Below the pieces are notes generated by a model. The model was not told the origin of the DNA. It made no database searches and saw only the letters and a list, made by a program, of their open reading frames with translations. A stretch of DNA of 41,222 nt from a virus (Duplodnaviria; Heunggongvirae; Uroviricota; Caudoviricetes): IMG/VR virus record IMGVR_UViG_2588253749_000003, positions 1 through 41,222 of that record; one strand, written 5' to 3'. A program made the position numbers and the translations under genes. Every line of letters begins with the position of its first letter. The first letter of the stretch is position 1. Shown in pieces: positions 1,419 to 16,141 of this stretch.

Positions 1419-3890
1419 TTAAAAATCAGCCTGATTCGGAATCAGTTTTTGCCAGATAGCTGAAACGTATTTTGCCTGGTAACGGGCGTCATCAAGTGCA
1501 TTATGGCGCTCACCTTCGAATGGAATAGCCGTTCTGGCATCGAAGTCTATGGCTTTCCCCAGCTCAACGATTGTGCGTACATCGCGATCGTTGTAGTAAC
1601 GCCACGGGCAGGGGATCCCCTGCCGTTCGTATGAACGGCGCAAAATCGTGTTGTCGAAGTTGGCTCCATTTCCCCAAACCTGAACAAAAAATTCACCGGA
1701 GTTTTCGTCGATAAATTCCCGCAATTGTAACAGTGCATCATCTAACGGGATTTCATCGGTCATAATGGCAGATTGCGCTTCGCGTGATTGCTTAAGCCAC
1801 CATTTAATGGTGTCCCGATCAATGACTCCGCCAGCAGTTTCCAGATCGATAGTCTTACTAAATTCCGGTCCCATATCTCCGGTTTGCGGATCGAAAAATA
1901 TTGCACCTATTGAGATAATCGGGGCATCAGGATTTTTTCCCATGGTTTCAAGGTCGATCATTAGATGGTCACACGTCCTGCTGGTGGATGTGATAACGCG
2001 ATGACCGTTCACCGTAATTAAGGGATCTGCCGTCTCGCCAGTTTCACTATCGCTGGCGTGATCCTGAGCGCTGCCAGCATTCTCCTTGTGTGGGTGTTCA
2101 GCGCCTTCCATTTTCTCCGAATCGTCTTCCTGAACTTCAACCTGGTTCTTGTCATCGAATGTTTCCTGGTATGTTGCGTCGCCCATCACCGCACCACAAT
2201 CAGGGCAGTTGCCACCACCGCTCTGACCGCAGGCGGTGCAGATTTTTTCCGGTTCCTGTTGCACTACTGGTTCAGGTTGTTTCGTTTCTGGCTCGTTTTG
2301 TTGCGTATTTGGGCTGTTTTGTTCCGCTTTCTGGTCGTTCTGTTCCGTTTCTTGCTGGTTCTGGTTCACAGTATCGCGGGTCTGGATCCCCTTAACCCAT
2401 TTCGGATCATTCGGGTCGCTAATCCCTTCAATAAATTCACCACGTGATGCAGCAAGCAACTTATCGGCGTCAGGCTGGCTGATATTGGCTGCCTGCATAA
2501 TTTTGTTTACTTCGTCAGCGGTAACTTTTACCGGTTCTGGCTGTGCGGTCGTGTCAGATGCACCAGTATTTTGTTGTGAACCTGAGTATGTACTGTTTTT
2601 GCGGGCGAAATATTCTTCTTTCGTGATTTCAGTAGCCCCGGCAGCCAGCGCCTTATCCAGACCAGAAAGTTTGTTTGCGCGACCGTATTTTTCGCCATCC
2701 TTGTCGGTGAAGAGGAAGTAGAACGGCCCCTCACGCTCTACAGATGGTTCGACTTCCACTTTGCATTCGGTTTTTTCGTTGTCCGGAATTGCCGTTTCCA
2801 CTGCATCAGTTTCTGGTACTGGCGACGAGAGAGTATCAGTTGCGCTCTGATTTGTTCCTTCATCTTCAAACACGCCCTTTGTAGTCAGGTATTCAGTAAT
2901 GTATTTGTTCAGTGCCACAGGATCTTTGTGAATGTCGATCGGACGTTCACGGACAAGGCCAAAAATAGTCTGGCGGTCGTAGCGAAGGGCATCAGGCTGT
3001 TTGCGCATCGATGCCGAGATACGCTTCCAGTCTTCGCGGTCGTTGTCGATAACTTCATTTTTTGCCCAGCGATGGATGCTGCCGTCAATGTTTCCGGCAT
3101 CCACATCACCAGGCCAGAGAGCGTAGGCCAGTTCGTCATCCAGTGTTTTCCATGTCTGCTTGTATTCGCGATGAGTGGCAGCAATGACCGGGTTGATTTT
3201 TCCTGTTGAATTTTCAGTGTTCTGTTGATTGGCTCTGGCGCGGGCGAGATCAACAACAGACGTGTATTTTCCGGTTTCCTTGCGTTCACCTTCGCGACGT
3301 TTTTTCCAGATGCGCATCTCTGCCTGAATTTCGGGCCATTTAGCACCAGGAATACATTTATGCTTAACCCACCCAATGGCGTGCAACTTAAGCTCCGGAT
3401 ACATGGCGTTAACTTCTGGCATTTTCATCAACGCTTCAACGATATGTCCGTCGAATGTTGCCATGTCTTCCTGCAACAGTTCCTGTGCACTAATCACCAT
3501 ATCAACGGTGATGTTTTCACATGTGTCGAACTTAACCATGACAGCGTTCTGTACTTCAGGGGCCAGCTTGTCAAAAGTGACGTTCATCGGATTTGATTCA
3601 GTCTCAACCGGGACAAAGGAAGCTGACTCCTCATCCCAGCGGTTTTCCTGCATATATTCAGCATCCCAGGAATCGAGGGCAGGGCGGGGTATACCGGGTT
3701 TATCCTCGCAAACAAGAAATTTATAAGCGCAGTCCTGAGCAGCCGGATAATGTTCCAGGAATTGCCAGTGAAATTTTGCGCGGGCGCGGCGTTCGTCGCC
3801 AGCTTCAATGGCAGTGGCTACAGCGACTGCACCTTCTTCCTTTATTGCCTGTTCGTCCGGAATAGCGGCGCAAATAAAGACTTTACTCAT
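1419..3890 (-). CDS. Large early protein with C-terminal DnaQ-like DEDDh 3'-5' exonuclease domain, Cys4 zinc-ribbon and acidic/Gln-rich low-complexity linker
   Basis: 823-aa ORF; C-terminal motifs DLETMG (Exo I), WGNGANFDNTIL (Exo II), HNALDDARY (Exo III); CTACGQSGGGNCPDCG zinc ribbon; QNQQETEQNDQKAEQN... linker. Confidence 0.7.
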   Translation of the reverse strand: MSKVFICAAIPDEQAIKEEGAVAVATAIEAGDERRARAKFHWQFLEHYPAAQDCAYKFLVCEDKPGIPRPALDSWDAEYMQENRWDEESASFVPVETESNPMNVTFDKLAPEVQNAVMVKFDTCENITVDMVISAQELLQEDMATFDGHIVEALMKMPEVNAMYPELKLHAIGWVKHKCIPGAKWPEIQAEMRIWKKRREGERKETGKYTSVVDLARARANQQNTENSTGKINPVIAATHREYKQTWKTLDDELAYALWPGDVDAGNIDGSIHRWAKNEVIDNDREDWKRISASMRKQPDALRYDRQTIFGLVRERPIDIHKDPVALNKYITEYLTTKGVFEDEGTNQSATDTLSSPVPETDAVETAIPDNEKTECKVEVEPSVEREGPFYFLFTDKDGEKYGRANKLSGLDKALAAGATEITKEEYFARKNSTYSGSQQNTGASDTTAQPEPVKVTADEVNKIMQAANISQPDADKLLAASRGEFIEGISDPNDPKWVKGIQTRDTVNQNQQETEQNDQKAEQNSPNTQQNEPETKQPEPVVQQEPEKICTACGQSGGGNCPDCGAVMGDATYQETFDDKNQVEVQEDDSEKMEGAEHPHKENAGSAQDHASDSETGETADPLITVNGHRVITSTSRTCDHLMIDLETMGKNPDAPIISIGAIFFDPQTGDMGPEFSKTIDLETAGGVIDRDTIKWWLKQSREAQSAIMTDEIPLDDALLQLREFIDENSGEFFVQVWGNGANFDNTILRRSYERQGIPCPWRYYNDRDVRTIVELGKAIDFDARTAIPFEGERHNALDDARYQAKYVSAIWQKLIPNQADF

Positions 3891-5122: not shown

Positions 5123-5705
5123 TCCTCATTACCCATCGTAAATTTACAGAAGTGGGCTTGATGTTGTGTTTTTCAAGCTCGCTCTTCATGATTTCCAGCA
5201 GCTTTGAGCTGATAATAAACAAATCAGGTGCATCGTTATTATTTTTATCCGCATCGTCTTTTTTCGTTTTTAACTCTTGCGGTGAATGTTCGAAAGCAAC
5301 TTGCAGGGTATTATTTTTAACATCCACAGAGCTTAAAATATGTGCATATGGATGTGCTATTGTGCGCCCCTGTAAATTTGCATCGTTTTCTAAATCTTTT
5401 GATTTCAACAGAACATCGGCAAGACTCTGAATCATGCAGAGATAATCAAAAACAGTTGCCGTTTCTGTTCTGATTGCTGAAATAACATGACCATTCAGGC
5501 AAACAGAAATTACCCGTTCATCAATATCGTTTTCCTGTTTTTGATTATCAGAACCATATAGCCCTGAAAAAGCATTGCGCACATTACGAACCATATTATC
5601 GATGGTTTCTTTTTTGGTGTATGCCGGGTCAATTTTCACCAGACTATCACCGAGTGTCGTTGCAGCAATTATCTGGATTTCTTTTGGTAAATCTTTAAAT
5701 TCCAT
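5100..5705 (-). CDS. Hypothetical protein (AT-rich accessory gene)
   Basis: 201-aa ORF in visibly AT-rich segment; no recognisable motif. Confidence 0.5.
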   Translation of the reverse strand: MEFKDLPKEIQIIAATTLGDSLVKIDPAYTKKETIDNMVRNVRNAFSGLYGSDNQKQENDIDERVISVCLNGHVISAIRTETATVFDYLCMIQSLADVLLKSKDLENDANLQGRTIAHPYAHILSSVDVKNNTLQVAFEHSPQELKTKKDDADKNNNDAPDLFIISSKLLEIMKSELEKHNIKPTSVNLRWVMRIIDASLP

Positions 5706-7153: not shown

Positions 7154-7180
7154 TGTTGCGTGTTTTTTGGAGTTCATTCG

Positions 7181-7504
7181 ATGAAAAAAGATAACTATTC
7201 ATTCAAACGAGCTTGTGCTGTTGTCGGTGGGCAATCAGCAATGGCTAGGCTTTTAGGTGTATCTCCTCCAAGCGTAAATCAATGGATCAAAGGTGTACGT
7301 CAGTTACCTGCTGAGAGATGTCCTGCGATTGAACGAGCAACAAAAGGTGGTGTCCTGTGTGAAGAACTTCGTCCTGATGTTGATTGGACATACTTACGAC
7401 GCTCGTCATGTTATTCGCAGAATATGTCGATGAAGCAACCAAATGACGAAAACGATCATACCCGAAGCATCAAGAGGCAAATGATTCATGAAAATCAAAC
7501 ATGA
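7181..7504 (+). CDS. Cro-like / YdaS-like HTH regulator
   Basis: ATG 7181 with GGAG SD; HTH-like QSAMARLLGVSPPSVNQWIKG; divergent from repressor. Confidence 0.7.
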   Translation: MKKDNYSFKRACAVVGGQSAMARLLGVSPPSVNQWIKGVRQLPAERCPAIERATKGGVLCEELRPDVDWTYLRRSSCYSQNMSMKQPNDENDHTRSIKRQMIHENQT

Positions 7505-7913
7505 GCACATCCGCATGGCGATGAATGCCTGGGCATACCCTGATGGTGAGAAAGTTCCTGCAGCTGAAATAGCCCGGACTTATTTCGAACTGGGGATGAC
7601 GTTCCCTGAACTGTATGACGACAGCCATCCGGAAGCCCTGGCTCGCAATACCCAGAAAATTTTCCGCTGGGTAGAGAAAGACACCCCTGATGCAGTTGAA
7701 AAAATTCAGGCGTTGTTACCAGCGATCGAAAAGGCAATGCCACCTTTGCTGGTGGCCAGAATGCGCAGCCACAGTTCAGCTTATTTTCGGGAGCTGGTGG
7801 AGATGCGGGAGCGACTGGTGAGAGACGCTGATGATTTTGTCGCAGTGGCAATCGCCGGTTTCAATCAGATGAACCGTGGTGGCCCGGCAGGAAATGCTGT
7901 GGCAGTACATTGA
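7488..7913 (+). CDS. YdaT-like (CII-like) regulatory protein
   Basis: 141-aa ORF overlapping cro-like stop; N-terminus MKIKHEHI... and size recall Rac YdaT-family proteins (from memory). Confidence 0.55.
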   Translation: MKIKHEHIRMAMNAWAYPDGEKVPAAEIARTYFELGMTFPELYDDSHPEALARNTQKIFRWVEKDTPDAVEKIQALLPAIEKAMPPLLVARMRSHSSAYFRELVEMRERLVRDADDFVAVAIAGFNQMNRGGPAGNAVAVH

Positions 7914-10912: not shown

Positions 10913-11176
10913 ATGATGGATGTAAAAGAGAAGGTTTTGCAGGTGATGCGTTCCCGTGCTGCCCTACAAGAGAAAGCTCTCGGTGGTGAATATCCATTCA
11001 CGATAGCAACCTGGAATCTGCGGTTGGCAATGGAGAAGGAATTTCCTGATGAAGAATGGCGTTCGGCAGATTTGCGCAAAATTCTTATAGAGATGGCTAA
11101 AGACGGAAAAGTATCCAAAGATACCCATGCCAGCCGGATTGGTCAGGCGGTATGGAGACTGGAGGCGAGGCAATGA
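10913..11176 (+). CDS. Hypothetical protein
   Basis: ATG 10913 with GGAGG SD; 87 aa. Confidence 0.4.
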   Translation: MMDVKEKVLQVMRSRAALQEKALGGEYPFTIATWNLRLAMEKEFPDEEWRSADLRKILIEMAKDGKVSKDTHASRIGQAVWRLEARQ

Positions 11177-11263
11177 GCTGGCCTGAAGCATTCACAACGG
11201 TAGGAACTGCAATGGCGGTTGCGCTGGTGGTGTATTCGATTTGCCGCTGGGGATAAATCGCCG

Positions 11264-11304
11264 AAAAAAGATCCCGACACAAACATGAGCCGGGATCTTT
11301 GATT
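11264..11304. terminator. Bidirectional rho-independent terminator
   Basis: Inverted repeat AAAAAAGATCCCG...CGGGATCTTT flanked by A-run and T-run, between convergent rightward genes and minus-strand TA pair. Confidence 0.5.
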
Positions 11305-11380
11305 TATATAGCCTACGAATCCGCCAGTAAGAGAGGGGGCGGACGGTTTATTCTAACACCGGAATGATGTGGGTAAAAGT

Positions 11381-11680
11381 TTATAAGAAATCGGTTTCAT
11401 AACTTTGCCCACCATGATAGATACCGACAATAAAGACTTTTCTGCCATCAACGGCAAAAGCAATAATCGTTCTGTGGCGGAAATGAGTTACCCGCATCCC
11501 CTGGCGAATATCATCGCGTTTATTGCCCCGATGCGGGAATGTAGAAAACCCATCAAGATAATCAAGAAGCGCATTGGCATAATTGTCAGCAATGACGCTT
11601 CCTGCTTTCTCCGTTATGTATCTGTGCAGGTTGATTATCTGCTGTTCGGCCTCAGGAGTAATGATGACTTCATATGTCAT
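11381..11680 (-). CDS. parE: ParE/RelE-family type II toxin
   Basis: 99 aa from ATG 11680; MTYEVIITPEAEQQIINLHRYI...IVGIYHGGQSYE fits ParE pattern; 5-nt gap after upstream antitoxin. Confidence 0.7.
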   Translation of the reverse strand: MTYEVIITPEAEQQIINLHRYITEKAGSVIADNYANALLDYLDGFSTFPHRGNKRDDIRQGMRVTHFRHRTIIAFAVDGRKVFIVGIYHGGQSYETDFL

Positions 11681-11685
11681 GCAGA

Positions 11686-11943
11686 TTACTTCCCGGATCG
11701 AATCGCAGCGCGAACCTGTGAAATGGAGCGTCCGTTGTTCGGGTTTTTGCGGATTGAATCCAGGGAGGGGGCGGCTGAATGCGTTAACCACGCTTCGATT
11801 GCTTTATCGCGCTCATTCAGTGCGCGAAGCCCTTCACGAATGACCTCGCTTTCTGAAGCATAGGCACCGGAAGCCACACGGGCGCGCACCATGTCAGCCA
11901 TCTCGTTAGTTAATGTAATGCTGAATTGTTGGGTTGTACGCAT
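11686..11943 (-). CDS. parD: ParD-family (ribbon-helix-helix) type II antitoxin
   Basis: 85 aa from ATG 11943 with GAGG SD; FSITLTNEMADMVRARVASGAYASESEVIREGLRAL matches ParD/CopG-type pattern. Confidence 0.7.
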   Translation of the reverse strand: MRTTQQFSITLTNEMADMVRARVASGAYASESEVIREGLRALNERDKAIEAWLTHSAAPSLDSIRKNPNNGRSISQVRAAIRSGK

Positions 11944-12024
11944 GGTAAACCTCAAGGAGTAGGATAGAACACTATTCGATGATAGCACGTTGCCTGTTGA
12001 CGACAACAGAAATCAGAGACAATA

Positions 12025-12351
12025 TTGCCGCACGCCAGCCTGAACAACTGGCACCTGCTGCGCCAGCAGAGACAACCAATGGCGCACAAAACCAAATTAC
12101 ACAATTCTGATACCGACCTTGCCATCCGGCACGGGCGGCGTTCTCACACATTCAAATATGACTGGTATCAGCACAATCCCTGCACCGAAGAACAGGCCGA
12201 GTGGCTGATTCAGAACTACCGCAGACGTGGTTACGAGTTTCAGAAAGACCTCAGTTCTGACTTCCGACACTGGATAATTTCCGTCAGACTCCCTTATTCC
12301 GAACGCCCACCGCGTCCGTCCCGCACATTCCAGCAACGGATCTGGAGGTAA
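12025..12351 (+). CDS. Hypothetical protein
   Basis: ORF from track; start uncertain; no motif. Confidence 0.3.
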   Translation: MPHASLNNWHLLRQQRQPMAHKTKLHNSDTDLAIRHGRRSHTFKYDWYQHNPCTEEQAEWLIQNYRRRGYEFQKDLSSDFRHWIISVRLPYSERPPRPSRTFQQRIWR

Positions 12352-13774: not shown

Positions 13775-14328
13775 TCGTAAATATGATATACCCGGAAATT
13801 ACAGGCAAAAGCGGCGAGCATTTACGTCTAAAAACGCTGGAAGCCGTCTGGATCCAGGGGAAATTACGGATGTGGGGGCGTTGGTCGTACATAGGTGGTG
13901 GCAAACCAGGAAATATGTTCAATCAGTTGCTGGCATCCAAAACACTTACAAAAACTGCGATCAATGAAGCTCTGCGCAGAATAAAAAAATCAGGGATTGA
14001 TAAAACTGAGCTGGAAGCGTTTTTGCGTGAGATGATCAACAGCAAGCAAAAGAGCGGGCTGGCTTATTGTACTGATGCCGAGGCGTTATGTATCGATCGG
14101 GTAATTAGTGAAGTGTTGGCAGAGCATCCGGGATTGATTTGTATCCTCCGACAAAGATATGAAGGGCTGGGTATGAGCAAGCTGAAAATGGCAGAACAGT
14201 TAAAAAAGAATCACCCTGACTGGAGCCTGAAAACTTGTAGAAATCGCATTGATGTTTGGTTGGCGATGGCTGAAACCATGCTTTTCCTTCCAATGTGCGT
14301 GGCACTTCGGTGCTTTTCTGATAACTGA
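13771..14328 (+). CDS. Late-gene antiterminator Q-like protein
   Basis: 185-aa ORF directly after rusA and upstream of late genes; call mainly positional, start codon uncertain. Confidence 0.5.
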   Translation: MIVNMIYPEITGKSGEHLRLKTLEAVWIQGKLRMWGRWSYIGGGKPGNMFNQLLASKTLTKTAINEALRRIKKSGIDKTELEAFLREMINSKQKSGLAYCTDAEALCIDRVISEVLAEHPGLICILRQRYEGLGMSKLKMAEQLKKNHPDWSLKTCRNRIDVWLAMAETMLFLPMCVALRCFSDN

Positions 14329-14357
14329 TGATAGAAGTGCATCAGCTATCAATCTTG

Positions 14358-14386
14358 TTGACGTTCATCAAGGTCTGGACAATACT
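14358..14386 (+). promoter_or_regulatory. Candidate sigma70 promoter for the ATPase/RloB-like module
   Basis: TTGACG (14358-14363), 17-nt spacer, AATACT (14381-14386), about 30 nt upstream of ATG 14418. Confidence 0.35.
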
Positions 14387-14417
14387 TACGTTAAGTTCCA
14401 ACATATGGAAGATAAGA

Positions 14418-15608
14418 ATGATATTTACACGATTGAGATTTATCAATTTGTACGCTTTTGAGGATGCAGAGCTTAACCTGTCCTATCCAAGGAAACCTGT
14501 AAACATGCCTCTTGATGGGGAGTTTTTGGCTGGACGGCCTAAATTTTACTATAAAAAAGTCTGTATCATAACGGGGGGAAATGCTTCAGGTAAGACGTCA
14601 CTAGGGCGAATTCTTTGTGGAATTCAGGTGTTTCTAAGAACCAAAGAGTTGCGGAGTAATCTGCGAGTGAATAATAAAAATAATGATGCTTCGTTTGAAG
14701 TGGACTTTGCTACGGAGGATCATTTTCATCATCGTTTGTATGTACGCTTTGCTACCAGTGAAGGCGGAGCGCACATAATCAAAGAAATTAAATATGGTTT
14801 TGTTCAAATAGCATTAAATGATTCTTGCCATAAAACCACAGAAAAACTGAATCAACTCTTTTCTGGAAGGGCCCCAGAAGATACAGAATATTTTTTTCAG
14901 GAACTAGCTACTGATAGCGAACCAGTTGTATTGGAGTTTTTCAAGCAACTTAAGTTTTTTGGTGGATGGTACTATTTGTTGTCTGAAACTAAAGAGAGTA
15001 CCACTGCAATTTCAGGAATGAATAAAAATATTCTTGAAAGGATAATTCGCACTTTCGATTCAAGTATTATAGGAGTTACCGAGATGCTGGAGTCTGAAAG
15101 TGACGGGGATGAAAATAAATCATCTGCGGTTTATCTGATTAAATTTAAAAACTCTGATTCTCTTGTCGTTACCAGTAAAGGTGAAATAATTAACTCAGAC
15201 CGTCTTTCTCGAGGAACATACGAGGCAGTGACGGTAGCGCATTTTATAAGCGCTATTATCTCTGATTGTGAAAGACTAGGTAAGCAATCTCTAATACCAT
15301 CAATGACTTATTTTCTTGACGAGAAATTGGCTTATACACATTCAGAGTTAGAGCGTATGATTGTGGCGCTGATTATATCTAATTTGAAAGAAAATACTCA
15401 GTTTTTCTATACAACGCATAACATGGATATTTTTGAGTTGGATCTGCCTGTTCATTCGTTCATTTTTATTAAAAAAACGAAAGACTATTCGGAGTTTGTT
15501 GAAGCAAATTCAGTTGTTAAAAAAAATGACCGTAGCATGCGAAACGCTGTTGAGAGAGATGTCTTTGGTGTCTTACCTGACACATCATTAGTATCGGAGC
15601 TACTCTGA
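14418..15608 (+). CDS. ABC-type (AAA_21/OLD-like) ATPase, candidate defense component A
   Basis: Start MIFTRLRFINLYAFED (typical RecF/SMC-like N-terminus); Walker A GGNASGKTS (14574-14597); signature-like LSRGT; Walker B YFLDE; H-loop FYTTHN; visibly AT-rich. Confidence 0.75.
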   Translation: MIFTRLRFINLYAFEDAELNLSYPRKPVNMPLDGEFLAGRPKFYYKKVCIITGGNASGKTSLGRILCGIQVFLRTKELRSNLRVNNKNNDASFEVDFATEDHFHHRLYVRFATSEGGAHIIKEIKYGFVQIALNDSCHKTTEKLNQLFSGRAPEDTEYFFQELATDSEPVVLEFFKQLKFFGGWYYLLSETKESTTAISGMNKNILERIIRTFDSSIIGVTEMLESESDGDENKSSAVYLIKFKNSDSLVVTSKGEIINSDRLSRGTYEAVTVAHFISAIISDCERLGKQSLIPSMTYFLDEKLAYTHSELERMIVALIISNLKENTQFFYTTHNMDIFELDLPVHSFIFIKKTKDYSEFVEANSVVKKNDRSMRNAVERDVFGVLPDTSLVSELL

Positions 15609-16141
15609 TGGCGGGGTTGTCTAAAATAAGAATAATTTTTGTCGAAGGTGAAACAGAAAACTCTCTTTTTCTGAAGATGAAACAACAGAGAGTTATTGAT
15701 GCCAAATCAATTGTAAAAAGAAACTTTTGGCAAGAGAGCATAAGAAATTATGCGATTACTATTCCGAAGGGAAGTGATATACTAATTGTCTTTGATAGTG
15801 ATGAAGTGGAGCAATCTGCAAGATTCATTGAAAATGTAAAGTTCCTTAAAAACAGAGGGCATAAAGTTTATCTTTTGCAGCAGAAAAGAAATTTTGAGGA
15901 GGAGTTGGCCTGGTGTTGCGGAATTCCTGTAAAAAAACTAATTGCTGGGTTCTGTGCAAAAAAAACATCGGGTATAAATGATTTCAAGAGAGATTTTATT
16001 GCTTGTAACAATCAACTTTCAAAGTTACTGAAAATGGGCATGCAGGAAACTAAGTGGTTTACAAGAGATTTACATGCTGTATTGGAGCCTGTTGCAAGTT
16101 TTAAGTCATCTTTTTCTAAACATTTCAGGTTAACAAGATGA
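15608..16141 (+). CDS. RloB-like / TOPRIM-like small protein (DUF4276-like), candidate defense component B
   Basis: ATG overlaps upstream stop (TGATGG); N-terminal IIFVEGETE motif and downstream ILIVFDSDE (DxD) consistent with TOPRIM-like fold. Confidence 0.6.
   Translation: MAGLSKIRIIFVEGETENSLFLKMKQQRVIDAKSIVKRNFWQESIRNYAITIPKGSDILIVFDSDEVEQSARFIENVKFLKNRGHKVYLLQQKRNFEEELAWCCGIPVKKLIAGFCAKKTSGINDFKRDFIACNNQLSKLLKMGMQETKWFTRDLHAVLEPVASFKSSFSKHFRLTR

Follow-up and report, generated by a model that had tools for sequence, protein, structure and literature searches.

A ParD/ParE-like gene pair in a prophage of E. coli

The 41,222-nucleotide stretch of viral DNA analyzed here (positions 1 to 41,222 of IMG/VR record IMGVR_UViG_2588253749_000003; hereafter the window) carries on its minus strand, at 11381-11943, two adjacent open reading frames (ORFs) of 85 and 99 amino acids that a preliminary description, made from the letters alone, had taken for a type II toxin–antitoxin (TA) pair of the ParD/ParE kind. 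The ORF list and the sequence bore out the described arrangement to the base, the stop codon of the upstream gene being separated from the ATG of the downstream one (11680) by the 5-nt spacer TCTGC. The order of the genes is that of ParD-ParE systems, with the antitoxin gene first and the toxin gene directly 3' of it, and both proteins fall in the size class of about 80–110 amino acids.

The upstream gene, parD, starts with an ATG at 11943, preceded by a GAGG Shine-Dalgarno sequence at 11953-11950, and ends in TAA at 11688-11686. Its product, initially described from the peptide FSITLTNEMADMVRARVASGAYASESEVIREGL as similar to ribbon-helix-helix (RHH) antitoxins, passed the curated cut-offs of hidden Markov models (HMMs) in two collections, scoring 32 bits against Pfam ParD_antitoxin PF03693 (cut-off 21; E = 1.7e-7) and 54.1 bits against NCBIfam TIGR02606 antidote_CC2985 (cut-off 46.2; E = 1.2e-14). 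Both matches span residues 6-51, which are the RHH part of the protein. A sequence search of the PDB matched seven solved ParD antitoxins at E < 0.01, including 3kxe, 7ycv, 6x0a, 7b22 and 8c24. The product of the downstream gene, parE, scored 41.5 bits against Pfam ParE_toxin PF05016 (cut-off 23; E = 2.1e-10), and the HMM searches for the two families thereby placed both proteins above their Pfam cut-offs. PHROGs assigned the two proteins to phrog_6494 'antitoxin' (E = 8.8e-56) and phrog_5232 'toxin' (E = 3.9e-43), both in the 'moron' category. In phage ArgO145 the antitoxin (gp08; 5487-5693 of locus L001) is annotated from an internal Met as a protein of 68 amino acids, a start that would delete the N-terminal beta-strand of the RHH domain; the 85-residue start, which has the Shine-Dalgarno sequence, is also the one chosen by the Prokaryotic Genome Annotation Pipeline (PGAP) of RefSeq.

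Both genes are under purifying selection. Pairwise ratios of non-synonymous to synonymous substitution (dN/dS) among five copies were 0.04-0.32 for the antitoxin and 0.06-0.21 for the toxin, most values lying between 0.04 and 0.2. An exhaustive HMMER search retrieved toxin relatives in 1,184 clusters of 50% identity at E <= 0.001, of which 229 were found at E <= 1e-10, and in Yersinia prophages, an Enterobacter island and Desulfovibrio loci a ParD gene of 85-91 amino acids always lay directly upstream of the toxin homologue. Because curated HMM cut-offs were passed, dN/dS is well below 1 and the pairing recurs in other genera, 11381-11943 is evidently a ParD/ParE type II pair and not a product of chance ORFs. 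That the pair is a decaying, non-functional remnant is extremely unlikely. Prophage cargo often decays, truncated fragments of the toxin are present in databases (P0029-P0035) and parE has been lost in some Stx2a phages; yet in the window both frames are intact and show the constraint just described, the hexamers of the predicted promoter (see below) are invariant across diverged copies, and 327 of the 5,426 complete E. coli genomes searched carry the pair at full length, in a total of 375 places that are all chromosomal.

Assignment of the toxin to the ParE branch

Pfam PF05016 also takes in RelE-type RNases, and the name 'RelE/ParE family' used by RefSeq likewise covers both activities. Such names are compatible with the toxin being a ribosome-dependent mRNA endonuclease of the RelE, YoeB or HigB type, in which case the module would arrest translation; hence the branch to which it belongs was tested separately. 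Searched both by sequence and by profile, the whole set of PDB chains yielded ParE-type toxins only (Mesorhizobium ParE, PrpT and Mycobacterium tuberculosis ParE1); the family profile, run against all PDB sequences, gave four matches at E <= 10, each to a toxin of the ParE type and none to an RNase. An AlphaFold (AF2) model of the toxin, built from 24 homologues, reached a predicted local distance difference test score (pLDDT) of 88 and a predicted template-modelling score (pTM) of 0.79. When this model was compared with the PDB by Foldseek, the best 22 matches were all ParE toxins, with template-modelling (TM) scores of 0.78-0.84. RelE-type structures were present lower in the list, but RelBE2, YoeB, YafQ and HigB scored only 0.41-0.65, under all ParE toxins. 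On these lower TM scores and the lack of a profile match at E <= 10, mRNA endonucleases of the RelE/YoeB/HigB/YafQ type were rejected as closest kin of the toxin. The class of the partner antitoxin, CC2985/ParD, also argues against an enzyme that cleaves mRNA, which we consider very unlikely. By the model and the profile searches, the 99-residue protein belongs to the ParE branch of the RelE/ParE fold, and the ParD/ParE identity first proposed is supported by HMM, sequence-to-PDB and fold evidence alike.

Boundaries and control elements of the cassette

The gene pair forms part of a 771-bp cassette (Table 1), whose edges were defined by comparison with other genomes. Along the DNA of E. coli RM9245 (locus L009), homology to the window breaks off at 11257 and restarts at 12029, and a hok/sok cassette lies between. 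In phage ArgO145, window positions 11173-12026 recur with 96% identity in other surroundings, since there a small ORF and the parDE cassette adjoin an anti-repressor gene near the integrase gene. This unit therefore moves as a block.

A bidirectional terminator had been described at 11264-11304. A hairpin, kept in ArgO145, does lie there; its core stem, GAUCCCGGC/GUCGGGAUC, is bordered by AAA and U6 and could be used from both strands. As minus-strand RNA it folds with -20.7 kcal/mol (z = -3.4; 1 of 200 shuffled sequences was as stable) and is followed by the U6 run, and as plus-strand RNA with -14.8 kcal/mol (z = -3.6), followed by UUUGAUUUAU. These predictions make the hairpin convincing as the terminator of the TA operon and plausible, if weaker, as one for the plus strand. 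A simple consensus terminator scan missed the hairpin, the loop of which exceeds 8 nt, and RNA folding was used in its place.

Upstream of parD, a sigma-70 promoter-like site is predicted on the minus strand, with 9 of 12 consensus matches. It consists of a -35 hexamer TTGTCG (12006-12001), a 16-nt spacer and an extended -10 element TGcTATCAT (11987-11979) that includes the TG. Neither hexamer differs in ArgO145 or in a locus that carries an orphan parD and is only 86% identical overall. Inspection of the sequence by eye revealed a near-palindrome, GTTGTCGTCAAC, over the -35 hexamer (12007-11996), and the half-sites CTATC, GAATAG and CTATC, about 9 bp apart, in the region from -10 to +1 (11985-11963). 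All of them are invariant in a three-way alignment, even in the copy of 86% identity, and are candidate operators for ParD; an automated repeat search of the promoter region (seed 6) returned nothing useful for an operator. A second promoter-like site, on the plus strand at 11997-12026, marks the right-hand end of the cassette; it reads TTGACG-18-AATATT, with TATATT in ArgO145. Its -35 hexamer overlaps that of parDE and it points into the DUF968-RusA-Q genes, but with 9 of 12 matches it may be due to chance. In ArgO145 (about 5830-5930 of L001) and in PA2-type phages (about 1860-2000 of locus L003) the parD promoter is preceded by a stretch resembling the T-arm of a tRNA, GGGGTTCGAATCCCGACGG. 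The window lacks this stretch, which may be a tRNA or attachment-site remnant of a former integration or recombination point.

The window itself is, by its gene content, a Rac/Qin-like lambdoid prophage of E. coli. Upstream of the cassette lie genes for an integrase, an exonuclease, a repressor-like ORF, the Cro-like YdaS, YdaT, a replication protein, DUF977, DUF551 and eaa, and downstream of it a hypothetical gene, DUF968, RusA and a Q-like DUF1133 gene. The flanking genes on both sides thus agree with the position between replication and nin regions given in the preliminary description, and the cassette sits between the replication genes and Q, with its genes running opposite to the early-right operon. 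Its earlier interpretation as opposite-strand cargo is supported by the sharp junctions and by its own promoter-like site and terminator. Combined with the 'moron' category of both proteins in PHROGs, these traits make the cassette a good fit to a phage moron.

Table 1. Location of the parDE cassette and of its components in the window
Feature	Position	Strand	Basis or remark
Small ORF, 27 aa, hydrophobic, MSWPEAFTTVGTAMAVALVVYSICRWG	11173-11256	+	Left anchor of the slot, outside the TA cassette
Whole mobile cassette, 771 bp (terminator, parE, parD, promoter/operator)	11258-12028	-	Junctions in L009 and ArgO145
Hairpin terminator, predicted	11267-11300	both	RNA folding; kept in ArgO145
parE-type toxin gene, 99 aa	11381-11680	-	Pfam, PHROGs, AF2/Foldseek, PDB profile, dN/dS, RefSeq WP_001297793.1
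parD-type RHH antitoxin gene, 85 aa	11686-11943	-	HMMs, PHROGs, PDB matches, dN/dS, RefSeq WP_001297790.1
Candidate operator region	11963-12007	-	Read by eye, conserved in three-way alignment
Sigma-70 promoter-like site, predicted	11979-12006	-	9/12 matches, TG present

A site shared with hok/sok

The ATG of the small ORF that forms the left anchor of the slot overlaps the stop codon of the gene before it (ATGA), and its product gave only a weak PHROG match (phrog_4612, E = 0.009). This ORF was found in 1,292 of the 5,426 E. coli genomes, with parDE adjoining in about 309, and the block to the right of the cassette, from 12029 onward, in 3,245. In E. coli O157:H7 NE92 (locus L008), in RM9245 (L009) and in phage 933W (L017), the small ORF is found directly before hok/sok, which occupies 2588-3497, 2586-3067 and 2501-3022 of the respective loci. 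In the two bacterial loci a Hok/Gef gene lies between the same two junctions as parDE, and the interval in RM9245 also gives a full-length match to Rfam sok (113 bits). With hokW-sokW of 933W and VT2-Sakai (prophage Sp5), the allelic hok cassette shares 88.8% identity. The type II parDE and type I hok/sok cassettes are thus alternative occupants of one site, delimited by window positions 11257/11258 and 12028/12029. They have in common the preceding 27-residue ORF and the character of small autonomous TA morons, and differ in that the toxin of hokW-sokW is an unrelated membrane peptide and its antitoxin an antisense RNA. Because a type I cassette fills the same slot elsewhere, the exchange suggests that selection acts on generic TA function and not on gyrase poisoning as such. 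Boundaries defined to the base, together with a site at which hok/sok is swapped in, provide a clean natural experiment on the function of TA systems in lambdoid prophages.

A role for hokW-sokW has been demonstrated: it helps Sp5-mediated lysis and doubles phage release after induction with mitomycin C (PMC8621323). The parDE module might serve the phage at induction in a similar manner, converging early-right transcription silencing parDE and the freed ParE then damaging the DNA of the host or arresting its growth, to the benefit of lysis or phage yield. The close relationship of the allelic hok cassette to hokW-sokW, and the fact that the parDE cassette faces the early-right operon from a position between the replication genes and Q, would fit such a role. 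However, the argument is one of analogy, and a gyrase poison might equally damage the replication of phage DNA; we therefore regard a function of this kind as improbable.

An orphan parD in Stx2a phages

Phages of the PA2/PA8 type, which are Stx2a phages, and 37 E. coli genomes matched the pair over parD alone. Two loci were inspected, both from PA2-type Stx2a phages (L003, 1194-1960; L004, 3300-4277), and retain the promoter, the whole of parD and codons 1-5 of parE, with 86% nucleotide identity to the window. Past codon 5, parE is replaced by a lipoprotein-like ORF, assigned to phrog_9924 (of unknown function), and by an orphan HigA-like helix-turn-helix gene. The N-terminal 48 residues of the orphan ParD, its DNA-binding half, are identical to those of the window ParD, with 0 non-synonymous versus 8-10 synonymous changes in the corresponding codons, and the C-terminal 37 residues show 13 differences with the hydrophobic pattern kept (dN/dS 0.24-0.31). 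The orphan parD is, by all appearances, this cassette after loss of parE beyond codon 5.

Orphan ParD and HigA antitoxins of enterohemorrhagic E. coli (EHEC) phages were noted in a 2025 paper that left their meaning open (PMC12502783), and in which no statement linking the orphan ParD to an intact parDE cassette was found. Descent from the cassette would explain the orphan ParD antitoxins noted there. A joint interpretation, in which the slot after the small ORF is a dedicated site of TA exchange in E. coli lambdoid prophages and the orphan ParD derived from the cassette acts as an anti-addiction or anti-exclusion factor, is offered tentatively and seems unlikely. If it were true, these Stx phages could enter, or coexist with, hosts that carry a ParDE prophage.

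Distribution and previous annotation

Over the 1-kb TA region, E. coli TD225-C4 is identical to the window, and the parDE region is 100% identical in three E. coli chromosomes. Many of the E. coli that carry parDE belong to Shiga-toxin-producing serotypes, and the pair is present in four phage records, including that of the Stx2a phage ArgO145. Annotation as a TA system already exists in RefSeq, in PHROGs and in the ArgO145 record, and the identical RefSeq proteins (accessions in Table 1) are named 'type II toxin-antitoxin system RelE/ParE family toxin' and 'ParD family antitoxin'. The pair is thus an already-annotated member of a well-known kind to which, as a TA pair, little is added here; what is new is at most the boundaries of the cassette, its allelism with hok/sok and the origin of the orphan ParD.

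Comparison with known systems

The best match to the toxin, both in sequence and in fold, was found in ParD3-ParE3/ParDE of Mesorhizobium opportunistum (5CEG, 6X0A), with a phmmer E-value of 0.007, a profile E-value of 1.1e-5, TM scores of 0.80-0.83 and 22-23% identity. This system has the same two-gene layout of RHH antitoxin and ParE toxin, and its antitoxin is also matched by the window ParD. It differs in being chromosomal and alphaproteobacterial, and the C-terminal halves of the two antitoxins are not alignable. The antitoxin of the window, which passes TIGR02606, has its best PDB match in 3kxe_C of Caulobacter crescentus ParD1-ParE1 (3KXE, CC2985 family). The toxin of the same complex, 3kxe_A, is matched by the toxin model with a TM score of 0.81 and an identity of 19%. 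Caulobacter ParDE1 and ParDE of plasmid RK2 are classical gyrase-poisoning addiction modules, and it is from this family that gyrase is presumed to be the target of the window toxin. Their carriers are a chromosome and a plasmid, in contrast to the lambdoid prophage that carries the window pair.

Three further ParE systems are, like the window pair, borne by prophages. ParESO-CopASO of Shewanella oneidensis prophage CP4So, which also combines a ParE with an RHH-type antitoxin, is reported to maintain the excised circular prophage (PMC8706911). Such maintenance is the role proposed for the window cassette, and the two differ in antitoxin type (CopA/CopG), host and phage. PaaR2-PaaA2-ParE2 from cryptic prophages of E. 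coli O157:H7 (5CW7, 5CZF), likewise of lambdoid origin, shares the ParE fold (TM 0.78-0.80), but comprises three genes instead of two, shows 18% toxin identity and has an antitoxin, PaaA2, that depends on the separate regulator PaaR2. The three-component PaaR-PaaA-ParE type was rejected for the window, as the 771-bp cassette has two genes only and its antitoxin has an RHH domain of its own. PfiT-PfiA of the Pseudomonas Pf4 prophage (9W3A) includes a toxin of the ParE/RelE superfamily (TM 0.81) and, according to PMC7264888 and PMC13048266, modulates phage production. It differs from the window pair in belonging to a filamentous phage, in having 16% identity and in its longer toxin with a distinctive C-terminus.

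Proposed mechanism and role

We consider it probable that positions 11258-12028 constitute a self-contained moron cassette encoding a classical ParD-ParE module, which by analogy with its family would work as an autoregulated, gyrase-poisoning addiction system. ParE toxins are gyrase inhibitors, and the mechanism of the ParDE family has been described (PMC10886550). Following that family, a sigma-70 promoter belonging to the operon itself would drive its transcription in the lysogen; ParD would dimerize through its N-terminal RHH domain and bind the promoter-overlapping repeats, thereby repressing transcription, and its C-terminal half (residues ~49-85) would wrap around ParE and neutralize it. 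ParD would be the protease-labile partner, so that a stop in its supply would release ParE, and free ParE would poison DNA gyrase; breaks in the DNA would follow, the SOS response would be induced, and the cell would stop growing or die. The supply might stop if the prophage is lost, if an infecting phage shuts off transcription, or if converging early-right transcription interferes after induction. On balance the host would be addicted to the prophage, and the module would compete with other mobile elements. Prophage ParE systems are reported to stabilize or modulate prophages (PMC10886550, PMC8706911 and PMC7264888), and the cassette could likewise stabilize its prophage, keep out other phages or assist at induction.

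Several observations weigh against this interpretation. The promoter and operator are predictions from sequence; the toxin has no match in NCBIfam, and hence no equivalog-level name; and its identity to any characterized ParE among the Foldseek PDB matches is at most 23%. Neither protein matched a PADLOC-DB 2.0 family at E <= 1, so that this library lends no support to a role in defense, and literature searches on ArgO145 and on ParDE in Stx or lambdoid phages and in abortive infection turned up no experiments on the subfamily. The gyrase step is the weakest part of the mechanism, because ParE2 of an O157:H7 prophage was reported neither to bind GyrA59 nor to inhibit gyrase (PMC10886550). Should ParE be a gyrase poison, its release would trigger the SOS response and could induce resident lambdoid prophages, Stx prophages included; given that the pair is common in Shiga-toxin-producing E. 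coli, such a poison could in principle feed the SOS-dependent induction of Stx phages.

Abortive infection could be the main role of the module, with shut-off of host transcription by an infecting phage leading to decay of ParD, after which ParE would kill or arrest the cell before the phage completes its cycle. Several features would suit such a role: the cassette is cargo with its own predicted promoter and is taken to be expressed in the lysogen, an AbiLi-like ATPase module is present in the same prophage (see below), and in Yersinia prophages a homologous pair lies near the superinfection-exclusion gene sieB. In addition, the intact orphan parD of Stx2a phages could be a counter-measure, an idea raised in PMC12502783. 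Against this stand the PADLOC result just given and a literature search in which no title or abstract reported defense mediated by ParDE. Abortive infection as the main role is possible, if doubtful; it is compatible with the addiction module proposed above and does not exclude it.

Other features of the prophage

The plus-strand region 14328-16141 holds a gene for a 426-residue ATPase that matches PADLOC AbiLi (E = 7.6e-26) and, weakly, Pfam AAA_15 and AAA_21, and a second gene, coding for a 177-residue partner without family match, begins where the first ends. The two genes make up an insertion of about 1.8 kb that follows the Q-like gene and is absent from TD225-C4, as judged by coordinate offset and not by alignment, and they are a candidate abortive-infection module. 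Near the immunity region of TD225-C4 there is a RelB-RelE pair; it is not in the ORF list of the matching region of the window, and it is not claimed for the window. At 7160-7913, also on the plus strand, genes of the immunity region match Pfam YdaS_toxin (as well as P22_Cro and HTH_3) and YdaT_toxin. In spite of the 'toxin' in these names, they are not taken for a further TA pair, because they sit at the lambdoid cro/cII position. Finally, three tRNA genes (Rfam tRNA, 56-72 bits) lie on the plus strand at 17871-18117, just downstream of a DNA methyltransferase ORF (16772-17821), and precede the holin and endolysin genes known from the PGAP annotation of the related TD225-C4 prophage, as they do in lambdoid phages of the Stx type.

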